From: Bdellovibrio sp.
GTDB lineage: Bacteria > Bdellovibrionota > Bdellovibrionia > Bdellovibrionales > Bdellovibrionaceae
Direction: 5' to 3'
NCBI GenBank assembly: GCA_036676395.1
Contig: JAKFCY010000002.1
Coordinates: 608,001-672,000 of the forward strand
DNA: 64,000 bases
Below are positions 13,699 to 20,385 of this stretch, piece by piece. The stretch's first letter is position 1, and every line of letters begins with the position of its first letter. The position numbers were made by a program, and so were the translations under genes. Under the pieces are notes generated by a model. It was not told the origin of the DNA, did no database searches, and worked only from the letters and a program-made list of their open reading frames with translations.

Positions 13699-14385
13699 AT
13701 GAACACAGTAAAACAATTGATAGCTATCTTATTCGTAAGTGTTGCGGCCACATCGGCTTTTGCGGCTTTAAAATTTGATTCAGACGTACCTAAAAGCATT
13801 CAAACACAAATGGTTGAAGACCTTGCGTTCATGAACCAAGTGCAAGGATCAGCACAAACACCTTTTCATAAAGAGATCTTTACAGCTCTTGATGGCAAAG
13901 CTTACCAAACATTTTTTGAATCACGCATTTTTTCTGTCGGCGTAGATGCTTGCGGCGGCGGGGCAGCTGTTGCTTGCGTGCAACCTTTCTTTGACCCGAA
14001 CAAAATGTGGTTAACTGAAAATTTCATCAATTTTTCTCACCCGCAAGTGGCTCGCGTAATGGTTGTGTATCATGAAGCACGTCACTCTGAGACTAAAAAT
14101 GGTAATTGGATGCATGCTAACTGCCCAAGACCTTTTCTAGATGTTAACGGTAAAGATATGGTTTCTATCTGGACAGGCGCAAAACTTGAAGGCCAACCGG
14201 CTTGTGATGCTAAATACCAAGGATCATATGGTTCATCGACAATCATGTTAAAAAATATCAGCAAGTACTGCTCTAACTGTAACGACAAAGTTAAAATGGA
14301 TGCTGATATCTATGCGATGGATCAGTTAAACCGTATTTCTAAACCGGCTGTTAAACAGTCAATGTTAGCTGACTTTGCAAACTAA
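13699..14385 (+). CDS. Secreted protein with HExxH motif (putative zinc metallopeptidase)
   Basis: Signal peptide AFA, VVYHEARH, six Cys; SD GAGGGG. Confidence 0.65.
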   Translation: MNTVKQLIAILFVSVAATSAFAALKFDSDVPKSIQTQMVEDLAFMNQVQGSAQTPFHKEIFTALDGKAYQTFFESRIFSVGVDACGGGAAVACVQPFFDPNKMWLTENFINFSHPQVARVMVVYHEARHSETKNGNWMHANCPRPFLDVNGKDMVSIWTGAKLEGQPACDAKYQGSYGSSTIMLKNISKYCSNCNDKVKMDADIYAMDQLNRISKPAVKQSMLADFAN

Positions 14386-15100
14386 CAAAGTTTTCATAAG
14401 ATTAACTCTAGGAGCTCTGCTAGTTGCAGGGCTCTTTTTCGTTGTGCGCTACTTTGATTCGACCGCTTCGAACGAACAACGCATATTGAAGCCTAGTCAG
14501 ATTGATTTTACGAAAAGTAATGAAGTTCAAGAAAAACCTGCTCCAGTTGTTGGTTCCAATTTCGAAGGTGACGACATCATTGAAGCTCCCACTATATTGA
14601 ATGAGCGTGAGCAAAAGTTATGGATAGCGGTTGAATCTATTTTAAAAACTAAGAATGACAATGATCCTGCAGTCAATGAGCTGAAGGGCCTAAGTGCTGA
14701 TTTTCATAAAGCGCTTTTTGATAAATATAACTACTTAAAGATGGAAGACCGTAATGGGCGGGGATTTATTGTATTTTTAGTCGCAAAGAATTTGAGGTCA
14801 TTTGAAGATTTAGAATTCTTGCAAAAAATTTATCAAGAAGCCCCATGTTTAAATTTAGAAAATTGTGCTGTCAGTGCAAATGATGATTCACACTCGGCTG
14901 GGGTTAATCAAACGACGACGATATATCCGCAACTTGTGGGTTTGTATCAGATCGAAAAACAATTGAATGCAAATCCTGATTTGTTGAAAGACGCGGCGAT
15001 GCGCGCTGGAATTTTAGCAACCTTGAAGCAAGCTGAAGCTTTTCCGGTTCCTGCTATTCACGAATTCGCAGCAAAAATTCGCCAAAAATTTAATCTCTAA
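14375..15100 (+). CDS. Membrane-anchored hypothetical protein
   Basis: N-terminal TM segment; overlaps the upstream gene by 11 nt. Confidence 0.6.
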   Translation: MQTNKVFIRLTLGALLVAGLFFVVRYFDSTASNEQRILKPSQIDFTKSNEVQEKPAPVVGSNFEGDDIIEAPTILNEREQKLWIAVESILKTKNDNDPAVNELKGLSADFHKALFDKYNYLKMEDRNGRGFIVFLVAKNLRSFEDLEFLQKIYQEAPCLNLENCAVSANDDSHSAGVNQTTTIYPQLVGLYQIEKQLNANPDLLKDAAMRAGILATLKQAEAFPVPAIHEFAAKIRQKFNL

Positions 15101-15846
15101 GCTGATTGTTTACGGCTTTCAGAATACTCTAAGAATAGATATTCTGATTTTTTATAAAAAGAATTGTAAGTTTTTAGTATTTCTTCTTGGCTTGAATATT
15201 CTTTAAGAGCTTCTTGTTTAAGTTTTAAATCAACCGTAATTTCAAAACCATAAAACTTACCGCGGGTAAATAGAAGATCAAAAAACATCGACATTATGAA
15301 TCCCAGACGGTGGCCTTCTTCTGCCATTAATTTATAGCCTTGGATAATTCTATGTATGATAAATTTTTTATTTTTGAAGTTTAAAAAGTAAGTAAAACCT
15401 GGCTCTCTTTTTTGTAAAAGTTTTCGTTCGCTAAAAAAGCCAAAGCTATAATTATGATATTTACTGAATTCTTTGGTCGCTAAATAGACCTGTAAATGAT
15501 GAGGATGTGGTTTTTCTCCGCCGTGAGGAGGGTGGGTGATGACAAAATCAAAACGGTACTTTGAAAAAATTTTGATAAAAGCCCGCTTTAATTCGCTTGG
15601 TCGAAGCAGCTTGTTTATGCCAGTGTCTTCGCAGTGGCCAAAAGCAACTTTAAGCCCATATTTATCTGCAACAGCCTGCAATTCTTTTCCGCGTTTAGAA
15701 ACAGCGGCATAAGTCATACATAAAATTAAAACATCATTGCGTTCTTTTAGAAGTTGTATGGATTGAAAACACCATAGCGTTTCATCATCGGGATGAGCGA
15801 CGATAATAAGAATTTTTTTGCGACAAATGTCTTGGAGGCTCTGCAT
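15097..15846 (-). CDS. PIG-L/LmbE-family N-acetylhexosamine deacetylase
   Basis: IIVAHPDDE and THPPHGGEKPHPHH metal-binding motifs. Confidence 0.8.
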   Translation of the reverse strand: MQSLQDICRKKILIIVAHPDDETLWCFQSIQLLKERNDVLILCMTYAAVSKRGKELQAVADKYGLKVAFGHCEDTGINKLLRPSELKRAFIKIFSKYRFDFVITHPPHGGEKPHPHHLQVYLATKEFSKYHNYSFGFFSERKLLQKREPGFTYFLNFKNKKFIIHRIIQGYKLMAEEGHRLGFIMSMFFDLLFTRGKFYGFEITVDLKLKQEALKEYSSQEEILKTYNSFYKKSEYLFLEYSESRKQSA

Positions 15847-15908
15847 AAGTTGAACCTTAGGTTGTCATTACTTTATATATAAGTAAAACTAATAAGTAAT
15901 AACCAGAC

Positions 15909-15923
15909 ATAGGATTTAGTTAT
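15909..15923. promoter_or_regulatory. Candidate LysR box
   Basis: ATA-N9-TAT (ATAGGATTTAGTTAT) overlapping the lysR start; a weaker copy at 15879-15893. Confidence 0.4.
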
Positions 15924-16824
15924 GATAAATATGAACCACTTAAGATCGTTTTACATTTGTGCCTTGCATAAAAATGTTACGAAAGCTGCAGAAGAACTTA
16001 AAGTTAGTCAGCCCTCAGTCAGCCAACAGCTTAAAGCCTTTGAAGAAGAGATTGGCTTTTCGTTGTTCTATCGTAATGGCCGCACGTTTGACCTTACTCC
16101 GCAAGGAAAGCGTCTATTCGAAAAGTCACAGACAATTTTTGATTCGTTAATTGGAATTCAGGATTTTATCGAACAACGCAGTGAAGTCTCGGGTGCGGTG
16201 CACCTGAGTGTTTCAGAAGAGATCGAAAGGCCATTTATTGCCAAGATTACTTCTGAATTAATCAGCAGCTCTATTTTTAGTGAAGCCCAGTTTTTTGTTC
16301 ATTCTGTCGATGACAAAATGATTACTGAAAAGCAAAAAGTAAAAAATCAGTTAATACTTTCTCATAAGGCGATGTCACAAGGCCGGTTAATCCAAACTTT
16401 TGAATTTCCGGTAAAGCTAATCACAAAAAAGCAAAACATTGAAATCAATCAGGCCAAGCAGAGTAATGTAAATGCAGTGATAGCGGCATTAGGGCAAAAA
16501 ATTATATTACCAGCGAAAACACATACGCTGCGCGCAGAGATCGAACAACATGTAAATATGGCTGAATTGCAAAATGCCGTTCTTATGGAAAGTAATATTA
16601 TGGCCTGTTTGACAGAGGCCGTTCGTCAGGGTGCAGGCTGTAGTTTGTTACCGATTCAATACGTCTATGAAGATGTGAAAAAAAATAAGTTGTCGGTTTA
16701 TGGTCCGGCTAACGGGTTTTGGAAATATAAAATTTATTTGTATGCAGGAATTGAAGCAGATGAATCCGTGGTTAAAGAGGTTCGTCATATTATTCAACGG
16801 TTCACAATAGAAAAGGGAGGCTAG
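15922..16824 (+). CDS. LysR-family transcriptional regulator
   Basis: N-terminal HTH NVTKAAEELKVSQPSVSQQLKAFE...LF.R. Confidence 0.92.
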   Translation: MINMNHLRSFYICALHKNVTKAAEELKVSQPSVSQQLKAFEEEIGFSLFYRNGRTFDLTPQGKRLFEKSQTIFDSLIGIQDFIEQRSEVSGAVHLSVSEEIERPFIAKITSELISSSIFSEAQFFVHSVDDKMITEKQKVKNQLILSHKAMSQGRLIQTFEFPVKLITKKQNIEINQAKQSNVNAVIAALGQKIILPAKTHTLRAEIEQHVNMAELQNAVLMESNIMACLTEAVRQGAGCSLLPIQYVYEDVKKNKLSVYGPANGFWKYKIYLYAGIEADESVVKEVRHIIQRFTIEKGG

Positions 16825-18198
16825 ATGGTTAGTATAATCATACCCACTTTAAATGAAGAAAAGCGCATAGCTGAAATTGTTCGTTTTTGTCTTAAATCAA
16901 AAGAAGTCGCCGAAGTGCTGGTCATTGATGATGGATCTATCGATAATACCCGCGAACTTGCGCAACAGGCAGGAGCAAAAGTTTTTTTTAGTTCAATGTT
17001 AGGAAAAGGAACTTCAATGCTTGATGGACTTTGGAAGGCCCAGACCGATACCGTGCTTTATCTAGACGGCGATATTTATAATTTTTCTGAAGATTTAATT
17101 TCTTTGATGACGGCTCCATTATTGGATAATCGCTGTGATTTCGTTAAAGGCCGATTTCACAGAACAGCAGGTCGTGTGACAGCATTAACGGCTAAGCCTT
17201 TAATAAAAGCTTTTTTTCCCGAGCTTGCAGAAATCGATCAACCACTGGGTGGAATAATTGCGGCGAAAAAAGATTTGCTTAAGAATATTAAATTTGAACC
17301 AGATTATGGTGTCGATATTGGTCTTCTGATCGATGTTTCTCAATTGGGTGCAAGAATCGAAGAGGTTGATATCGGCTCGCTTGAACATGATCATCAAACA
17401 CTTGATCAACTTGGCAATATGTCGGGCCAAATTGTTCGTGTCATTTTAGAAAGAGCTAATCGCTATAAAAAACTAGATATCACGCATTTAAAAGACACTT
17501 ATGAAATTCAGCGGGTTAACCAATTGCAGATGGAACCTATAATCAGTCGTATTGATCCGCAAAAGAAACTGGCTTTATTTGATATGGATGGAACCCTGGT
17601 CGAAGGACGTTATGTCGAACGCTTAGCCAAATATGTCGGTCGCGAAGAATTGCTTAAAAGATTATTGGATAATAAAAAATTAGATCCGATTTATCGCACC
17701 AAGATGATTGCTAAGGTGTTTTCTGGAGTTCAAAAAAGTATTTTCGAAAAAATTGCGCAAATTATTCCATTAGCCAGCAATGCGCAAAGTCTTGTGGTCG
17801 AGCTCAAAAAGCGTGGTTATACTGTAGGTATTGTCACTGACAGCTATTTCGTGGCGTCTGAAATTATTCGTAAAAGAGTATTCGCCGATTTTTCGGTAGC
17901 TCATCTTCTGGATTTTAAAAAAGGTGTTTTTTCAGGAGAAGTAAATATTTCGCCGTTATTTATCGGAGACGGATGTGCAAAACATGACTATTGTAAACTT
18001 AATCTGTTAGGGCATCTCGATCATTTTTATGACATGAAAAAATCACTTATTCACTATGCCGGTGACGGGCTAAACGATATCTGTATTATGGAAAAACTAA
18101 AAAACACTTGCGCCGTTCGACCAAAAGATCCGCTAGTTGAAGTGGCCGCGTCAGGAGTCGCTCAAGATCTAAAAGAGATTTTGGTGCGATGGAATTAG
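16825..18198 (+). CDS. GpgS-like glycosyl-3-phosphoglycerate synthase fused to a SerB-like HAD phosphatase
   Basis: GT-A motifs IPTLNEE, DDGS, LDGD, GRVT..TAKPL, QPLGG, YGVDIGLLID, HDHQ; C-terminal FDMDGTL, IVTDS, GDGLND. Confidence 0.82.
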   Translation: MVSIIIPTLNEEKRIAEIVRFCLKSKEVAEVLVIDDGSIDNTRELAQQAGAKVFFSSMLGKGTSMLDGLWKAQTDTVLYLDGDIYNFSEDLISLMTAPLLDNRCDFVKGRFHRTAGRVTALTAKPLIKAFFPELAEIDQPLGGIIAAKKDLLKNIKFEPDYGVDIGLLIDVSQLGARIEEVDIGSLEHDHQTLDQLGNMSGQIVRVILERANRYKKLDITHLKDTYEIQRVNQLQMEPIISRIDPQKKLALFDMDGTLVEGRYVERLAKYVGREELLKRLLDNKKLDPIYRTKMIAKVFSGVQKSIFEKIAQIIPLASNAQSLVVELKKRGYTVGIVTDSYFVASEIIRKRVFADFSVAHLLDFKKGVFSGEVNISPLFIGDGCAKHDYCKLNLLGHLDHFYDMKKSLIHYAGDGLNDICIMEKLKNTCAVRPKDPLVEVAASGVAQDLKEILVRWN

Positions 18199-19484
18199 AG
18201 AAAAAATTTTTTGAAATTAGAAATCATTTTCTAAAGTTATTACCTTTTTGGCTAGCTGGTGCGATTACTGCTCTGGTTGCGACCAGCTACGCCAAAGTCT
18301 TTGCCTGGGCCGAACATTTATCGCTGCAGATTTATGAAAGAACGGGACTATGGTATTTATTAATTCCGCCAGTTTTTTTTGTCGCTTCTTGGCTTTTGGT
18401 TGAATTTTTTTCTTCCCGTGCAAATGGCAGCGGCATACCGCAACTCATGGTCGCTATCGAATTATCACAAAATAAAAAATATGAGTCGATTCCGAGTTTG
18501 CTGAGTTTAAGAATTATTATAGTAAAAATATTAAGTTCACTGTTGGGTGTTCTGGGGGGCGGCGCAATCGGGCGCGAGGGCCCAACATTACAAATTTCTG
18601 GCTCGATTTTTCAGATGTTTAATACTCGGTGGAGACTTTCTGAAATACAAAACCGGTCGGCCTTTCTTATGGCGGGTGCAGCTTCAGGATTAGCGTCAGC
18701 TTTTAATACGCCGCTCGGCGGAATCGTGTATGTCGTTGAAGAATTAGCTAAATCACATTTAAGTTCGTTTCGCACGGGCGTGCTTCATGCTGTTATTGTT
18801 GCCGGTATAATTTCGCAGATGATTATGGGGCCTTACCTATATTTTGGTTACCCCAAAATAGATTCTTTTAAGCTAGTCACGATACCTTATTACTTATTGG
18901 TGGCCTTATCTGCCGCAGTTATTGTTACGCTTTTTTCTGAAGCCTTAAAAACTATTGTCATTTTTCGAAGCCGTATTGTCAGCTTCAGAGGCAAGTTGAT
19001 TTTAACTGCACTATGCGGATTTTTTTTCGCGTTGGTCACTATTTATGTTTCGGTCAATACCCTGGGGCCAGGCAAAGAGCTGTTAAATCGTCTGCTTTTT
19101 TCAAGTCAGTCGGCCCAGTTTACGGATGTGATTGTTCGCTTTTTCGGAACTCTATTAACATATGCCAACGGCGGTGCCGGCGGTATTTTTGCGCCGACTT
19201 TAACTCTTGGTGGTACAGCAGCTGGTGCGTTTAATAGTTTACTCCAGTTTGATCTGGGGCCATTGGCAATACTTATCGGAATGACAGCAGGCCTTTCGGC
19301 ATTGACACATTCGCCACTGACTTCATTTATTTTAATTTTAGAGATGACTGACCGACAATCGGCTATCTTTCCGTTAATGTTAGCGGCAATTATAGGTCAT
19401 GGCTTTTCGAAACTGGTATCAAAACAAGCCTTTTACGAATTCGTCTGCGAACGAATAACTAGTAATGCCAAGGAAATTTATTAA
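18189..19484 (+). CDS. ClC-family Cl-/H+ antiporter (no CBS domains)
   Basis: GSGIP, GREGP and GGIFAP signatures. Confidence 0.92.
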   Translation: MELEKKFFEIRNHFLKLLPFWLAGAITALVATSYAKVFAWAEHLSLQIYERTGLWYLLIPPVFFVASWLLVEFFSSRANGSGIPQLMVAIELSQNKKYESIPSLLSLRIIIVKILSSLLGVLGGGAIGREGPTLQISGSIFQMFNTRWRLSEIQNRSAFLMAGAASGLASAFNTPLGGIVYVVEELAKSHLSSFRTGVLHAVIVAGIISQMIMGPYLYFGYPKIDSFKLVTIPYYLLVALSAAVIVTLFSEALKTIVIFRSRIVSFRGKLILTALCGFFFALVTIYVSVNTLGPGKELLNRLLFSSQSAQFTDVIVRFFGTLLTYANGGAGGIFAPTLTLGGTAAGAFNSLLQFDLGPLAILIGMTAGLSALTHSPLTSFILILEMTDRQSAIFPLMLAAIIGHGFSKLVSKQAFYEFVCERITSNAKEIY

Positions 19485-20385
19485 AGTCGCGATCACGCTT
19501 TTGTAAAAAAGCATCGCGGCCTTCTTGAGCCTCATTAGTGCCATAAGCTAAACGAGTCGCTTCGCCGGCAAATAATTGCTGACCCACAAGGCCATCATCC
19601 GGCAAATTAAAACCGTATTTCAACATACGCATCGCTGTCGGAGATTTCGTATTCATCTCGGCAGCCCATTCTAACGCTACTTTTTCAAGATCAGCGTGCG
19701 GTACAACTTCGTTGACCATTCCCATATTGAAAGCGGCTTCGGCGTTGTAATTACGGCCTAAGAAGAATATTTCGCGCGCTTTTTTCTGACCTACTTGGCG
19801 AGCCAGATACGCCGAGCCGTAACCGGAATCAAAACTAGCTACGTCAGCATCGGTTTGCTTAAAGATCGCATGCTCTTTAGAAGCCATCGTTAAATCACAC
19901 ACCACATGTAATGAGTGGCCGCCACCAACAGCCCAGCCAGGAACCACTGCCATGACAACCTTTGGCATAAAACGGATCATGCGCTGAACTTCTAAAATAT
20001 GTAAACGGCCAAGCTTAGCTTGATTAACTTTATTCATTTCGCCAGTGCCGTTACTATCGTCACCTTCGAATTTGTAACCATCACGACCGCGAATGCGTTG
20101 ATCGCCACCAGAACAGAATGCCCAGCCACCATCTTTTGCTGAAGGGCCATTTCCTGTAATTAAAACCACTCCCACATCTGCAGAAATGCGCGCGTGCTCT
20201 AATGCCGTTAAAAGTTCATCAACCGTTTTTGGGCGAAATGCATTGCGCACTTCGGGTCTATTAAAGGCAACACGAACAGTGCCTTGATTTTTTGCTTTAT
20301 GGTAAGTGATGTCAGTGAAATCAAATCCAGCAACTTCGGTCCATTGAGTAGGGTCAAAAATATCAGAAACTTTTTTAGTGCTCAT
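19459..20385 (-). CDS. menB: 1,4-dihydroxy-2-naphthoyl-CoA synthase
   Basis: NRPEVRNAFRP, FCSGGDQR, SFDSGYG, EAQEGRDAF. Confidence 0.96.
   Translation of the reverse strand: MSTKKVSDIFDPTQWTEVAGFDFTDITYHKAKNQGTVRVAFNRPEVRNAFRPKTVDELLTALEHARISADVGVVLITGNGPSAKDGGWAFCSGGDQRIRGRDGYKFEGDDSNGTGEMNKVNQAKLGRLHILEVQRMIRFMPKVVMAVVPGWAVGGGHSLHVVCDLTMASKEHAIFKQTDADVASFDSGYGSAYLARQVGQKKAREIFFLGRNYNAEAAFNMGMVNEVVPHADLEKVALEWAAEMNTKSPTAMRMLKYGFNLPDDGLVGQQLFAGEATRLAYGTNEAQEGRDAFLQKRDRDFNKFPWHY

Follow-up and report, generated by a model that had tools for sequence, protein, structure and literature searches.

What could be made by a bacterial gene cluster in which a sugar transferase fused to a phosphatase is combined with a deacetylase, a chloride transporter and a regulator? 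The question is raised by positions 15097–19484 of a 64,000-nucleotide stretch of a Bdellovibrio sp. genome (assembly GCA_036676395.1, contig JAKFCY010000002.1, positions 608,001 to 672,000; the entire stretch is denoted the window below, and the host genome G000). The best reading, to which a probability of roughly 0.45 is assigned, is that this module is a horizontally acquired ion/osmotic-stress islet, the enzymes of which would convert UDP-N-acetylglucosamine (UDP-GlcNAc) and 3-phosphoglycerate, via GlcNAc-glycerate, to zwitterionic glucosaminyl-glycerate. The genes and domains in question are the following.

15097..15846, minus strand: PIG-L/LmbE-family de-N-acetylase gene (249 aa; PF02585, E 1e-15)
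15922..16824, plus strand: lysR, LysR-type regulator (300 aa; HTH_1, E 1e-18; LysR_substrate match weak)
16825..18198, plus strand: open reading frame (ORF) of the glycosyltransferase-HAD fusion (457 aa; GT2 and HAD in Pfam and NCBIfam)
16825..17490, plus strand: N-terminal GT-A domain of the fusion, GpgS/MpgS-like, actinobacterial type (PDB GpgS, E 7e-28)
17545..18198, plus strand: C-terminal SerB-like HAD phosphatase domain of the fusion (Pfam/NCBIfam, motif alignment)
18189..19484, plus strand: clc, ClC-family transporter (PF00654, Voltage_CLC, E 9e-67)

The layout is as described in the original prediction, which was made from the sequence alone: the lysR stop codon abuts the fusion ATG (0 bp gap), the fusion and clc overlap by 10 bp, the PIG-L gene is divergent across 75 bp, and both ends overlap convergent neighbors (the PIG-L gene overlaps ORF 14375–15100 by 4 bp, and clc overlaps menB, 19459–20385, by 26 bp). 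Pfam and NCBIfam searches and alignments likewise confirm the identities and intact catalytic motifs of all four genes.

The structural model of the transferase domain superposes on GpgS structures with a root-mean-square deviation of 1.5–1.9 Å over about 225 columns (about 35% identity). The best NCBIfam match of the fusion is the GpgS model NF010496, with 189 bits, under the cut-off of 262; the domain is shorter than the model. The nucleotide, metal, sugar and glycerate roles of GpgS residues are assigned in PMC2581804 (this and the other papers cited below were available in part). In the alignment to GpgS, the domain keeps E11, K61, D81-x-D83, GRVT 116–119, L141, Y161, H188 and M199; in particular, the Lys114-Asp134-Glu232 network, the DxD motif and His258 of GpgS are represented by K61, D81, D83, D164 and H188. 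Val186 and Thr187 of the GRVT loop bind the glycerate carboxylate in GpgS (PMC2581804), and the corresponding G116-R117-V118-T119 is present here, each position being kept in 82–83 of the 83 family rows. Glu212 of the PLxGE motif and Arg261 are replaced by I144 and Q191, respectively, and nearly all 83 rows differ from GpgS in the same manner (Glu212 to I/M/L, Glu232 to D, Asn260 to S/M/H, Arg261 to Q/K). Together with the score under the GpgS equivalog cut-off, these changes could indicate that the whole fusion family uses a donor other than glucose or an acceptor other than 3-phosphoglycerate, with the deacetylase as an optional last step toward some other product. This appears improbable: mannosylglycerate synthase likewise has Asp at the Glu232 position, and the role of Glu212 is structural (PMC2581804). 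In addition, the Gfo/Idh/MocA protein encoded next to some fusions, tried as a GH109 hexosaminidase, finds no enzyme of that kind in the top 60 of 65 or the top 60 of 71 PDB rows, nor in NCBIfam.

The phosphatase domain contains the complete HAD catalytic motifs I–IV (D253, D255, T338, K391, D414, N417, D418) and scores 67 bits with the SerB model, below the cut-off of 144. Glu20 of phosphoserine phosphatase binds the amino group of serine (PMC6321591). Among the 120 best of the 2015 clusters that make up the fusion family (E<=1e-60, 8000 scored candidates), the equivalent of this residue is R262 or Ser in 120/120, and R291 is near-invariant (119/120). The lack of Glu20 and the presence of R291 would suit an amine-free carboxylate such as a glycosyl-phosphoglycerate; GpgP activity has been described for HAD-like and for histidine phosphatases (PMC3240985). 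The same 120 clusters share an invariant C384-x2-H387-x2-C390-K391 motif (window positions 17974–17997), and a Cys near residue 420 is frequent; C384, H387 and C390 may, with this Cys, bind a structural metal ion within the HAD domain.

The deacetylase retains the motifs H18-P-D20-D21-E, R52-x-x-E55, D74 and H114-P-H116-H117. Its subfamily comprises 74 clusters (E<=1e-3), and in the 66 sequences aligned, the active-site residues H18, D20, D21, R52, D74, H114 and H117 are conserved in 65–66 rows. Thus, the HxD1D2+H metal motif characteristic of LmbE/PIG-L deacetylases, the general base and the equivalents of MshB Arg68, Asp95 and His144 are all kept (R52 and D74 were mapped to MshB by alignment with other PIG-L proteins rather than by superposition). 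The conserved LmbE substrate residues Arg, Asp and His are named in PMC4101496, according to which an N-acylglucosamine core is the target of every LmbE member known at that time. The structural model (predicted local distance difference test score 94) has LmbE deacetylases as its closest folds and includes a basic, aromatic helical insert, residues 157–192. The gene is the only PF02585 match in the host genome and is under purifying selection (six pairs; nonsynonymous divergence pN 0.15–0.25, synonymous divergence pS saturated).

The insert might be taken to indicate that the joint substrate of the two enzymes is a GlcNAc glycoside linked to the membrane or to a lipid, and that they alter the envelope charge, with no free solute formed. 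Helix 157–173 has a net charge of +0.25 per residue, the helix pair is 18–23% aromatic, and the top fold matches are lipoglycopeptide deacetylases. However, the hydrophobic moment of the insert helices (0.29–0.31) is not above that of the core helices, there is no recurring flippase, GT-C or acyltransferase gene beside the loci of the clade, and the transferase keeps the GRVT loop for a small acceptor, so this explanation is considered unlikely.

The genomic association of the deacetylase with the fusion supports a functional coupling of the two. Among 182 genomes of the family, the PIG-L subfamily has 14 matches, 6 of these at E<=1e-30, and each of these 6 strong genes lies no more than about 2 kb from the fusion gene or its stub. 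Three arrangements are seen: divergent across lysR (G000, G115, G066 and G177), directly upstream of the fusion (G180), or downstream of it, behind a putative Na+/H+ antiporter gene (G060). In G064, a broken PIG-L gene (38 bits) lies beside lysR, and the fusion is broken as well; the G005 locus ends at a contig edge. In a 401-genome sample of the phylum, full-strength members of the subfamily are present only in G000 and G180. Across the 120 fusion clusters, 25/58 clade fusions apparently share a contig with a subfamily PIG-L gene vs 0/62 outside the clade, where equal length of the longest contigs serves as a proxy for a shared contig; two such pairs (L089 and L070) were confirmed directly. 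The identities of paired fusions and deacetylases co-vary (21 pairs, Spearman 0.78, 0/5000 permutations), down to 28% PIG-L identity. Thus, the PIG-L proteins are a distinct subfamily tied to one fusion clade, and the PIG-L linkage, the lack of which the original prediction named among its refuting conditions, is conserved. The four-gene set as a functional unit fared worse: LysR and ClC are absent or replaced in G060 and G180, so the transferase and the deacetylase are the core pair. For an LmbE protein that retains its GlcNAc site and occurs nowhere but next to a sugar transferase, the simplest interpretation is that it acts on the product or the donor of that transferase.

These observations are compatible with a three-step pathway. 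The transferase domain, as its fold and motifs suggest, would move a sugar from a nucleoside diphosphate (NDP)-sugar onto the C2 hydroxyl of 3-phosphoglycerate; the fused HAD domain, with its full set of motifs, would take the phosphate off the predicted intermediate; and the linked PIG-L enzyme, the active site of which is intact, would remove an N-acetyl group from its putative substrate, so that the sugar would have to be GlcNAc. Deacetylation could occur before or after the phosphatase step or on the donor. The candidate product, 2-O-(alpha-glucosaminyl)-glycerate, would be a net-neutral zwitterion, unlike the anionic glucosylglycerate. The ClC protein would adjust chloride and protons, and LysR would bind conserved boxes, probably controlling transcription in both directions.

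Several observations weigh against this scheme, and some of them favor its most serious competitor, namely, that the fusion makes ordinary glucosyl- or mannosylglycerate whereas PIG-L is a co-transferred partner with a substrate of its own, for example, in the salvage of GlcNAc or GlcNAc-phosphate from prey by a host without NagA. Gene neighborhoods were analyzed at 89 loci of the fusion: 80 of these are the top-ranked among 562 metagenome matches, 7 come from genomes of the family and 2 from named genomes. The duplicates L001 and L002 were excluded, and L074 contains the stub only. None of the 81 loci outside the family group of the host contains a PIG-L gene (81/81; 29 of these have 3 kb on both sides). 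G508, which belongs to another family, has an intact lysR-fusion-clc array with at most a decayed PIG-L start (4/500 shuffles score as high), which shows that the deacetylase can be lost while the fusion stays intact; furthermore, all paired cases represent one clade moving as a block. The donor pocket is unchanged across the fusion family: K61, D81, L141, Y161, D164 and M199 are identical in the clade and in its relatives lacking PIG-L, so that, judging from the aligned residues, there is no sign of space for an N-acetyl group. Two positions on the active-site side at which the clade differs from other fusions, G109 (58/58 vs 1/62 outside) and H/Q190 (58/58 vs 1/62), speak for the scheme, but G109 and H190 may simply be markers of descent. 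For the GpgS and MpgS enzymes described in PMC2581804 and PMC3240985, the donors carry glucose or mannose. Not every protein with the LmbE fold is a deacetylase; the GalB hydratase shares this fold.

The relatives of the deacetylase bear on both readings. The nearest relatives in the phylum sample, 20 loci with weaker matches, are mostly located beside NagB-like genes (the 9 neighbors scanned are all PF01182), and two of the 20 are fused to NodS-like domains; both contexts are GlcNAc-related, in line with the best reading. The pairing of sister PIG-L proteins with NagB-like genes and the lack of a NagA match in G000 are compatible with the salvage version. Conversely, G000 has no NagB-family match that could consume the product of such salvage, the subfamily is not found away from the fusion in the 182 family genomes or the 401-genome sample, and the pair outlasts rearrangements in which LysR and ClC are lost. 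A passenger role of PIG-L is judged less probable than the glucosaminyl-glycerate pathway but the most probable of the alternatives to it. As to the proposal that UDP-GlcNAc is joined to a phospho-acceptor, the acceptor half is backed by the conserved GRVT loop, whereas the donor half gains nothing from a pocket that is the same as in fusions lacking PIG-L.

Two residue signatures were considered and rejected. H190 does not strictly track the presence of PIG-L, since P0312 and P0323 combine Q190 with PIG-L whereas G508 has Q190 but no PIG-L, and PLGG is not a sign of mannose use (GpgS in 7pdo also carries PLGGE). Separately, a sister PIG-L clade in Bdellovibrionota (L173–L190) is encoded divergently from a short NagB-like gene, a pair that possibly represents NagA-independent GlcNAc catabolism, and the fusions of PIG-L to a NodS-like methyltransferase (L171:862-1902 and L172:823-1869) come from two Bdellovibrionota genomes.

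The original prediction also offered a thiol scaffold. A glycosyltransferase, a phosphatase and a deacetylase act in this order, as MshA, MshA2 and MshB, in mycothiol synthesis, and MshB is the best, albeit weak (E 7e-4), PDB sequence match of the PIG-L subfamily profile. Nevertheless, the genome (99.3% complete) yields no BshC match and no MshC match above the cut-off, and no ligase gene is present in the module or the clade loci; a mycothiol- or bacillithiol-like product is thus highly improbable.

The module is a clean insertion of about 4.36 kb without a counterpart in close relatives, with the following boundaries.

15101..19459, no strand: inserted module, between two convergent host stop codons (comparison with the empty sites in G137 and G158)

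In G137 (flanks 91–92.5% identical) and G158, the homolog of ORF 14375 directly abuts menB. The left flanking gene is present at the 15 loci of the genus that were examined: these two show the abutting arrangement, one (G118) has other DNA at the site, and 12 have no menB within 1.5 kb. The overlaps at the ends arise because the PIG-L and clc genes end inside host genes after the insertion. The GC content of the four genes (0.35–0.42) is near that of the genome (0.40). A contig from another study spans 14317–19806 with 253 differences; therefore, a related strain carries the module at the same site. None of the 4 sequencing runs aligned to the locus contains a joint that skips the module. The other 51 genomes of the genus yield nothing beyond weak GT2 matches to the fusion, which at E<=1e-40 is present in 8 of the 384 genomes of the order, the host included; among 31 matching plasmid records, none covers 80% of the fusion. 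In G118, about 1.3 kb of different DNA (L202:2234-3550) occupies the same convergent junction, which may mean that this site accepts insertions repeatedly. Next to the module, the two adjoining ORFs at 13699–15100 encode proteins with a hydrophobic N-terminus that match nothing in Pfam or NCBIfam; 16 of 52 genomes of the genus contain the second ORF.

Decaying modules are seen as well. In G064 (L071:8819-11040), lysR is joined to the middle of the transferase domain and the PIG-L gene is broken, and in G177 (L074:8107-8320), a fusion stub ends after 66 codons; either may be an assembly artefact. G060 additionally encodes a second, degenerate fusion copy (L073:4449-5879; 31% identity), in which neither the DxD nor the HAD motifs survive.

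The intergenic region between the PIG-L gene and lysR contains two candidate regulatory elements.

15879..15893, plus strand: putative LysR recognition box, dyad-like T-N11-A, ATA(A/G)GTAAAAC..AT (7/7 aligned lysR-bearing loci)
15909..15923, plus strand: second box, ATAGG-N-AT, 30 bp downstream of the first (6/7 loci), overlapping the lysR ribosome site and start

An exact match to ATA-N9-TAT, the pattern to which the original prediction likened the boxes, occurs once (15909–15923); shuffled sequences contain 0.22 on average, so that this count does not exceed chance (P=0.196). Thus, the boxes are real by virtue of their conservation across lysR-bearing loci, not by pattern count. The locus has the features typical of LysR-type regulation, that is, an HTH and a substrate domain with a T-N11-A box conserved in the divergent gap; DNA binding is predicted, and LysR probably binds the box at 15879–15893. 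Two further matches to this box in the genome lie within ORFs and are taken as chance. A promoter scan returned 14 sites vs 11.2 expected, none of them in the divergent gap. All of the 25 best of 52 NCBIfam models score LysR under their cut-offs, so that none of the named subfamilies among these is reached.

The transporter contains the motifs GSGIP, GREGP and YVVEE and a Tyr aligned to Y445 of ClC-ec1. These residues have established roles in ClC proteins, and the alignment shows the central Ser, gating Glu, inner Glu and central Tyr of the antiporters; by this comparison, the protein is probably a Cl-/H+ antiporter. It is the only ClC found in the host genome (one tblastn match).

The fusion itself is widespread, which partly undercuts the claim of a new pathway: apart from the closest named homologs, which come from Bdellovibrionota and Pseudobdellovibrionaceae genomes, named members of the 2015 clusters belong to Burkholderiales, Chitinophagaceae, Planctomycetes, Acidobacteria and a DPANN archaeon. 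In a quick tree, neither the rooting nor the grouping of the 6 PIG-L-linked rows as monophyletic (62%) is well supported; the module-bearing loci fall within the family of the host. The suggested salt or ion-stress context is supported family-wide, inasmuch as a recurring ion-transport, mechanosensitive or trehalose/sucrose gene is present at 39/81 outside loci, many of them short, a count given without a background rate for comparison. ClC lies beside the fusion in 14/81 outside loci, 10 of them in one clade and 4 on other branches. This context supports the fusion family as a two-step maker of glycosyl-glycerate stress solutes. The host genome has no trehalose-synthase family match.

Other recurring neighbors include a DUF389 membrane protein in 10/89 loci on distant branches (L067, L068, L072, L089, L101, L126, L136, L140, L142 and L158) and a putative Na+/H+ antiporter (PF07399) in 9/89 loci. 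In a Burkholderiales-like clade (L109, L112, L114-L116, L119, L120, L124 and L147), the fusion belongs to a cluster with MarR, ClC, sodium-solute symporter and Gfo/Idh/MocA genes, which suggests uptake and oxidation of a glycoside.

Taken together, the original interpretation is partly supported. In a fuller form, a GpgS-type transferase would have changed its donor to UDP-GlcNAc and, together with the SerB-like phosphatase fused to it and an LmbE deacetylase specific to the pathway, would yield an undescribed zwitterionic compatible solute, spread as a compact islet among predatory Bdellovibrionota; in the widest version, roughly 2000 fusions lacking the deacetylase would make GlcNAc-glycerate. 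As a whole, this proposal is tentative, at somewhat less than even odds. If it is correct, an amino-sugar member joins the sugar-glycerate solutes, an enzyme type described with glucose and mannose acquires a GlcNAc donor, and the LmbE deacetylases gain a new substrate; a neutral product that needs no potassium counter-ion would suit coupling to chloride exchange. Even with a glucose donor, the fusions, some 2000 clusters in which the phosphatase is SerB-like, appear to be an experimentally uncharacterised family.

Among known systems, the closest is the two-step glucosyl-/mannosylglycerate pathway of the actinobacterial-type GpgS/MpgS (PDB 4y6n, 7pdo, 3f1y) and GpgP. The fusion shares with these synthases the GT-A fold, the Lys/Asp/acid triad, the DxD motif, the GRVT loop and the metal His, and differs in the fused phosphatase, the linked deacetylase, the replacement of Glu212, Asn260 and Arg261, and the shortening of Glu232 to Asp. 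The combination of synthase and phosphatase in one chain, here a single 457-aa ORF, resembles MgsD of Dehalococcoides mccartyi, a GT55 plus HAD-IIB enzyme. MgsD is a bifunctional mannosylglycerate synthase, one polypeptide with synthase and phosphatase that acts on 3-phosphoglycerate (PMC8490865). Unlike MgsD, the fusion matches no classical mannosyl-3-phosphoglycerate synthase or MpgP model among the 11 Pfam and 25 NCBIfam families listed (for HAD-IIB, E is no better than 0.004), and its phosphatase is SerB-like, a distinction drawn at the level of family models.

The deacetylase shares with MshB, BshB and other LmbE deacetylases the HxDD+H motif and the Arg/Asp/His substrate residues but has only 12–20% identity in structural alignments, a His at the Asp146 position and the helical insert. 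The logic of a sugar placed on a small acid recalls GlcNAc-malate of the bacillithiol/mycothiol route; in contrast to those systems, the partner is a GT-A rather than a GT4 enzyme, and no cysteine ligase was found. The module ClC is similar to ClC-ec1 (ClcA) in the GSGIP, GREGP, xxxEE and central Tyr signatures, but scores 196 bits vs the 350 cut-off and is coupled to a sugar-enzyme operon. In the literature searched, which misses much subscription-only work on sugar-glycerates and was represented mostly by titles, abstracts and passages, there is no report of glucosaminyl- or GlcNAc-glycerate or of a PIG-L deacetylase with a compatible solute and glycerate, and no description of a GpgS-phosphatase fusion of this type. 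The module works like GpgS with GpgP and like the bifunctional MgsD, yet lies outside the GpgS equivalog, MgsD, SerB and the thiol pathways: it is a real variant of the sugar-glycerate pathway in which the deacetylase partner is well supported and glucosaminyl-glycerate is the predicted product.

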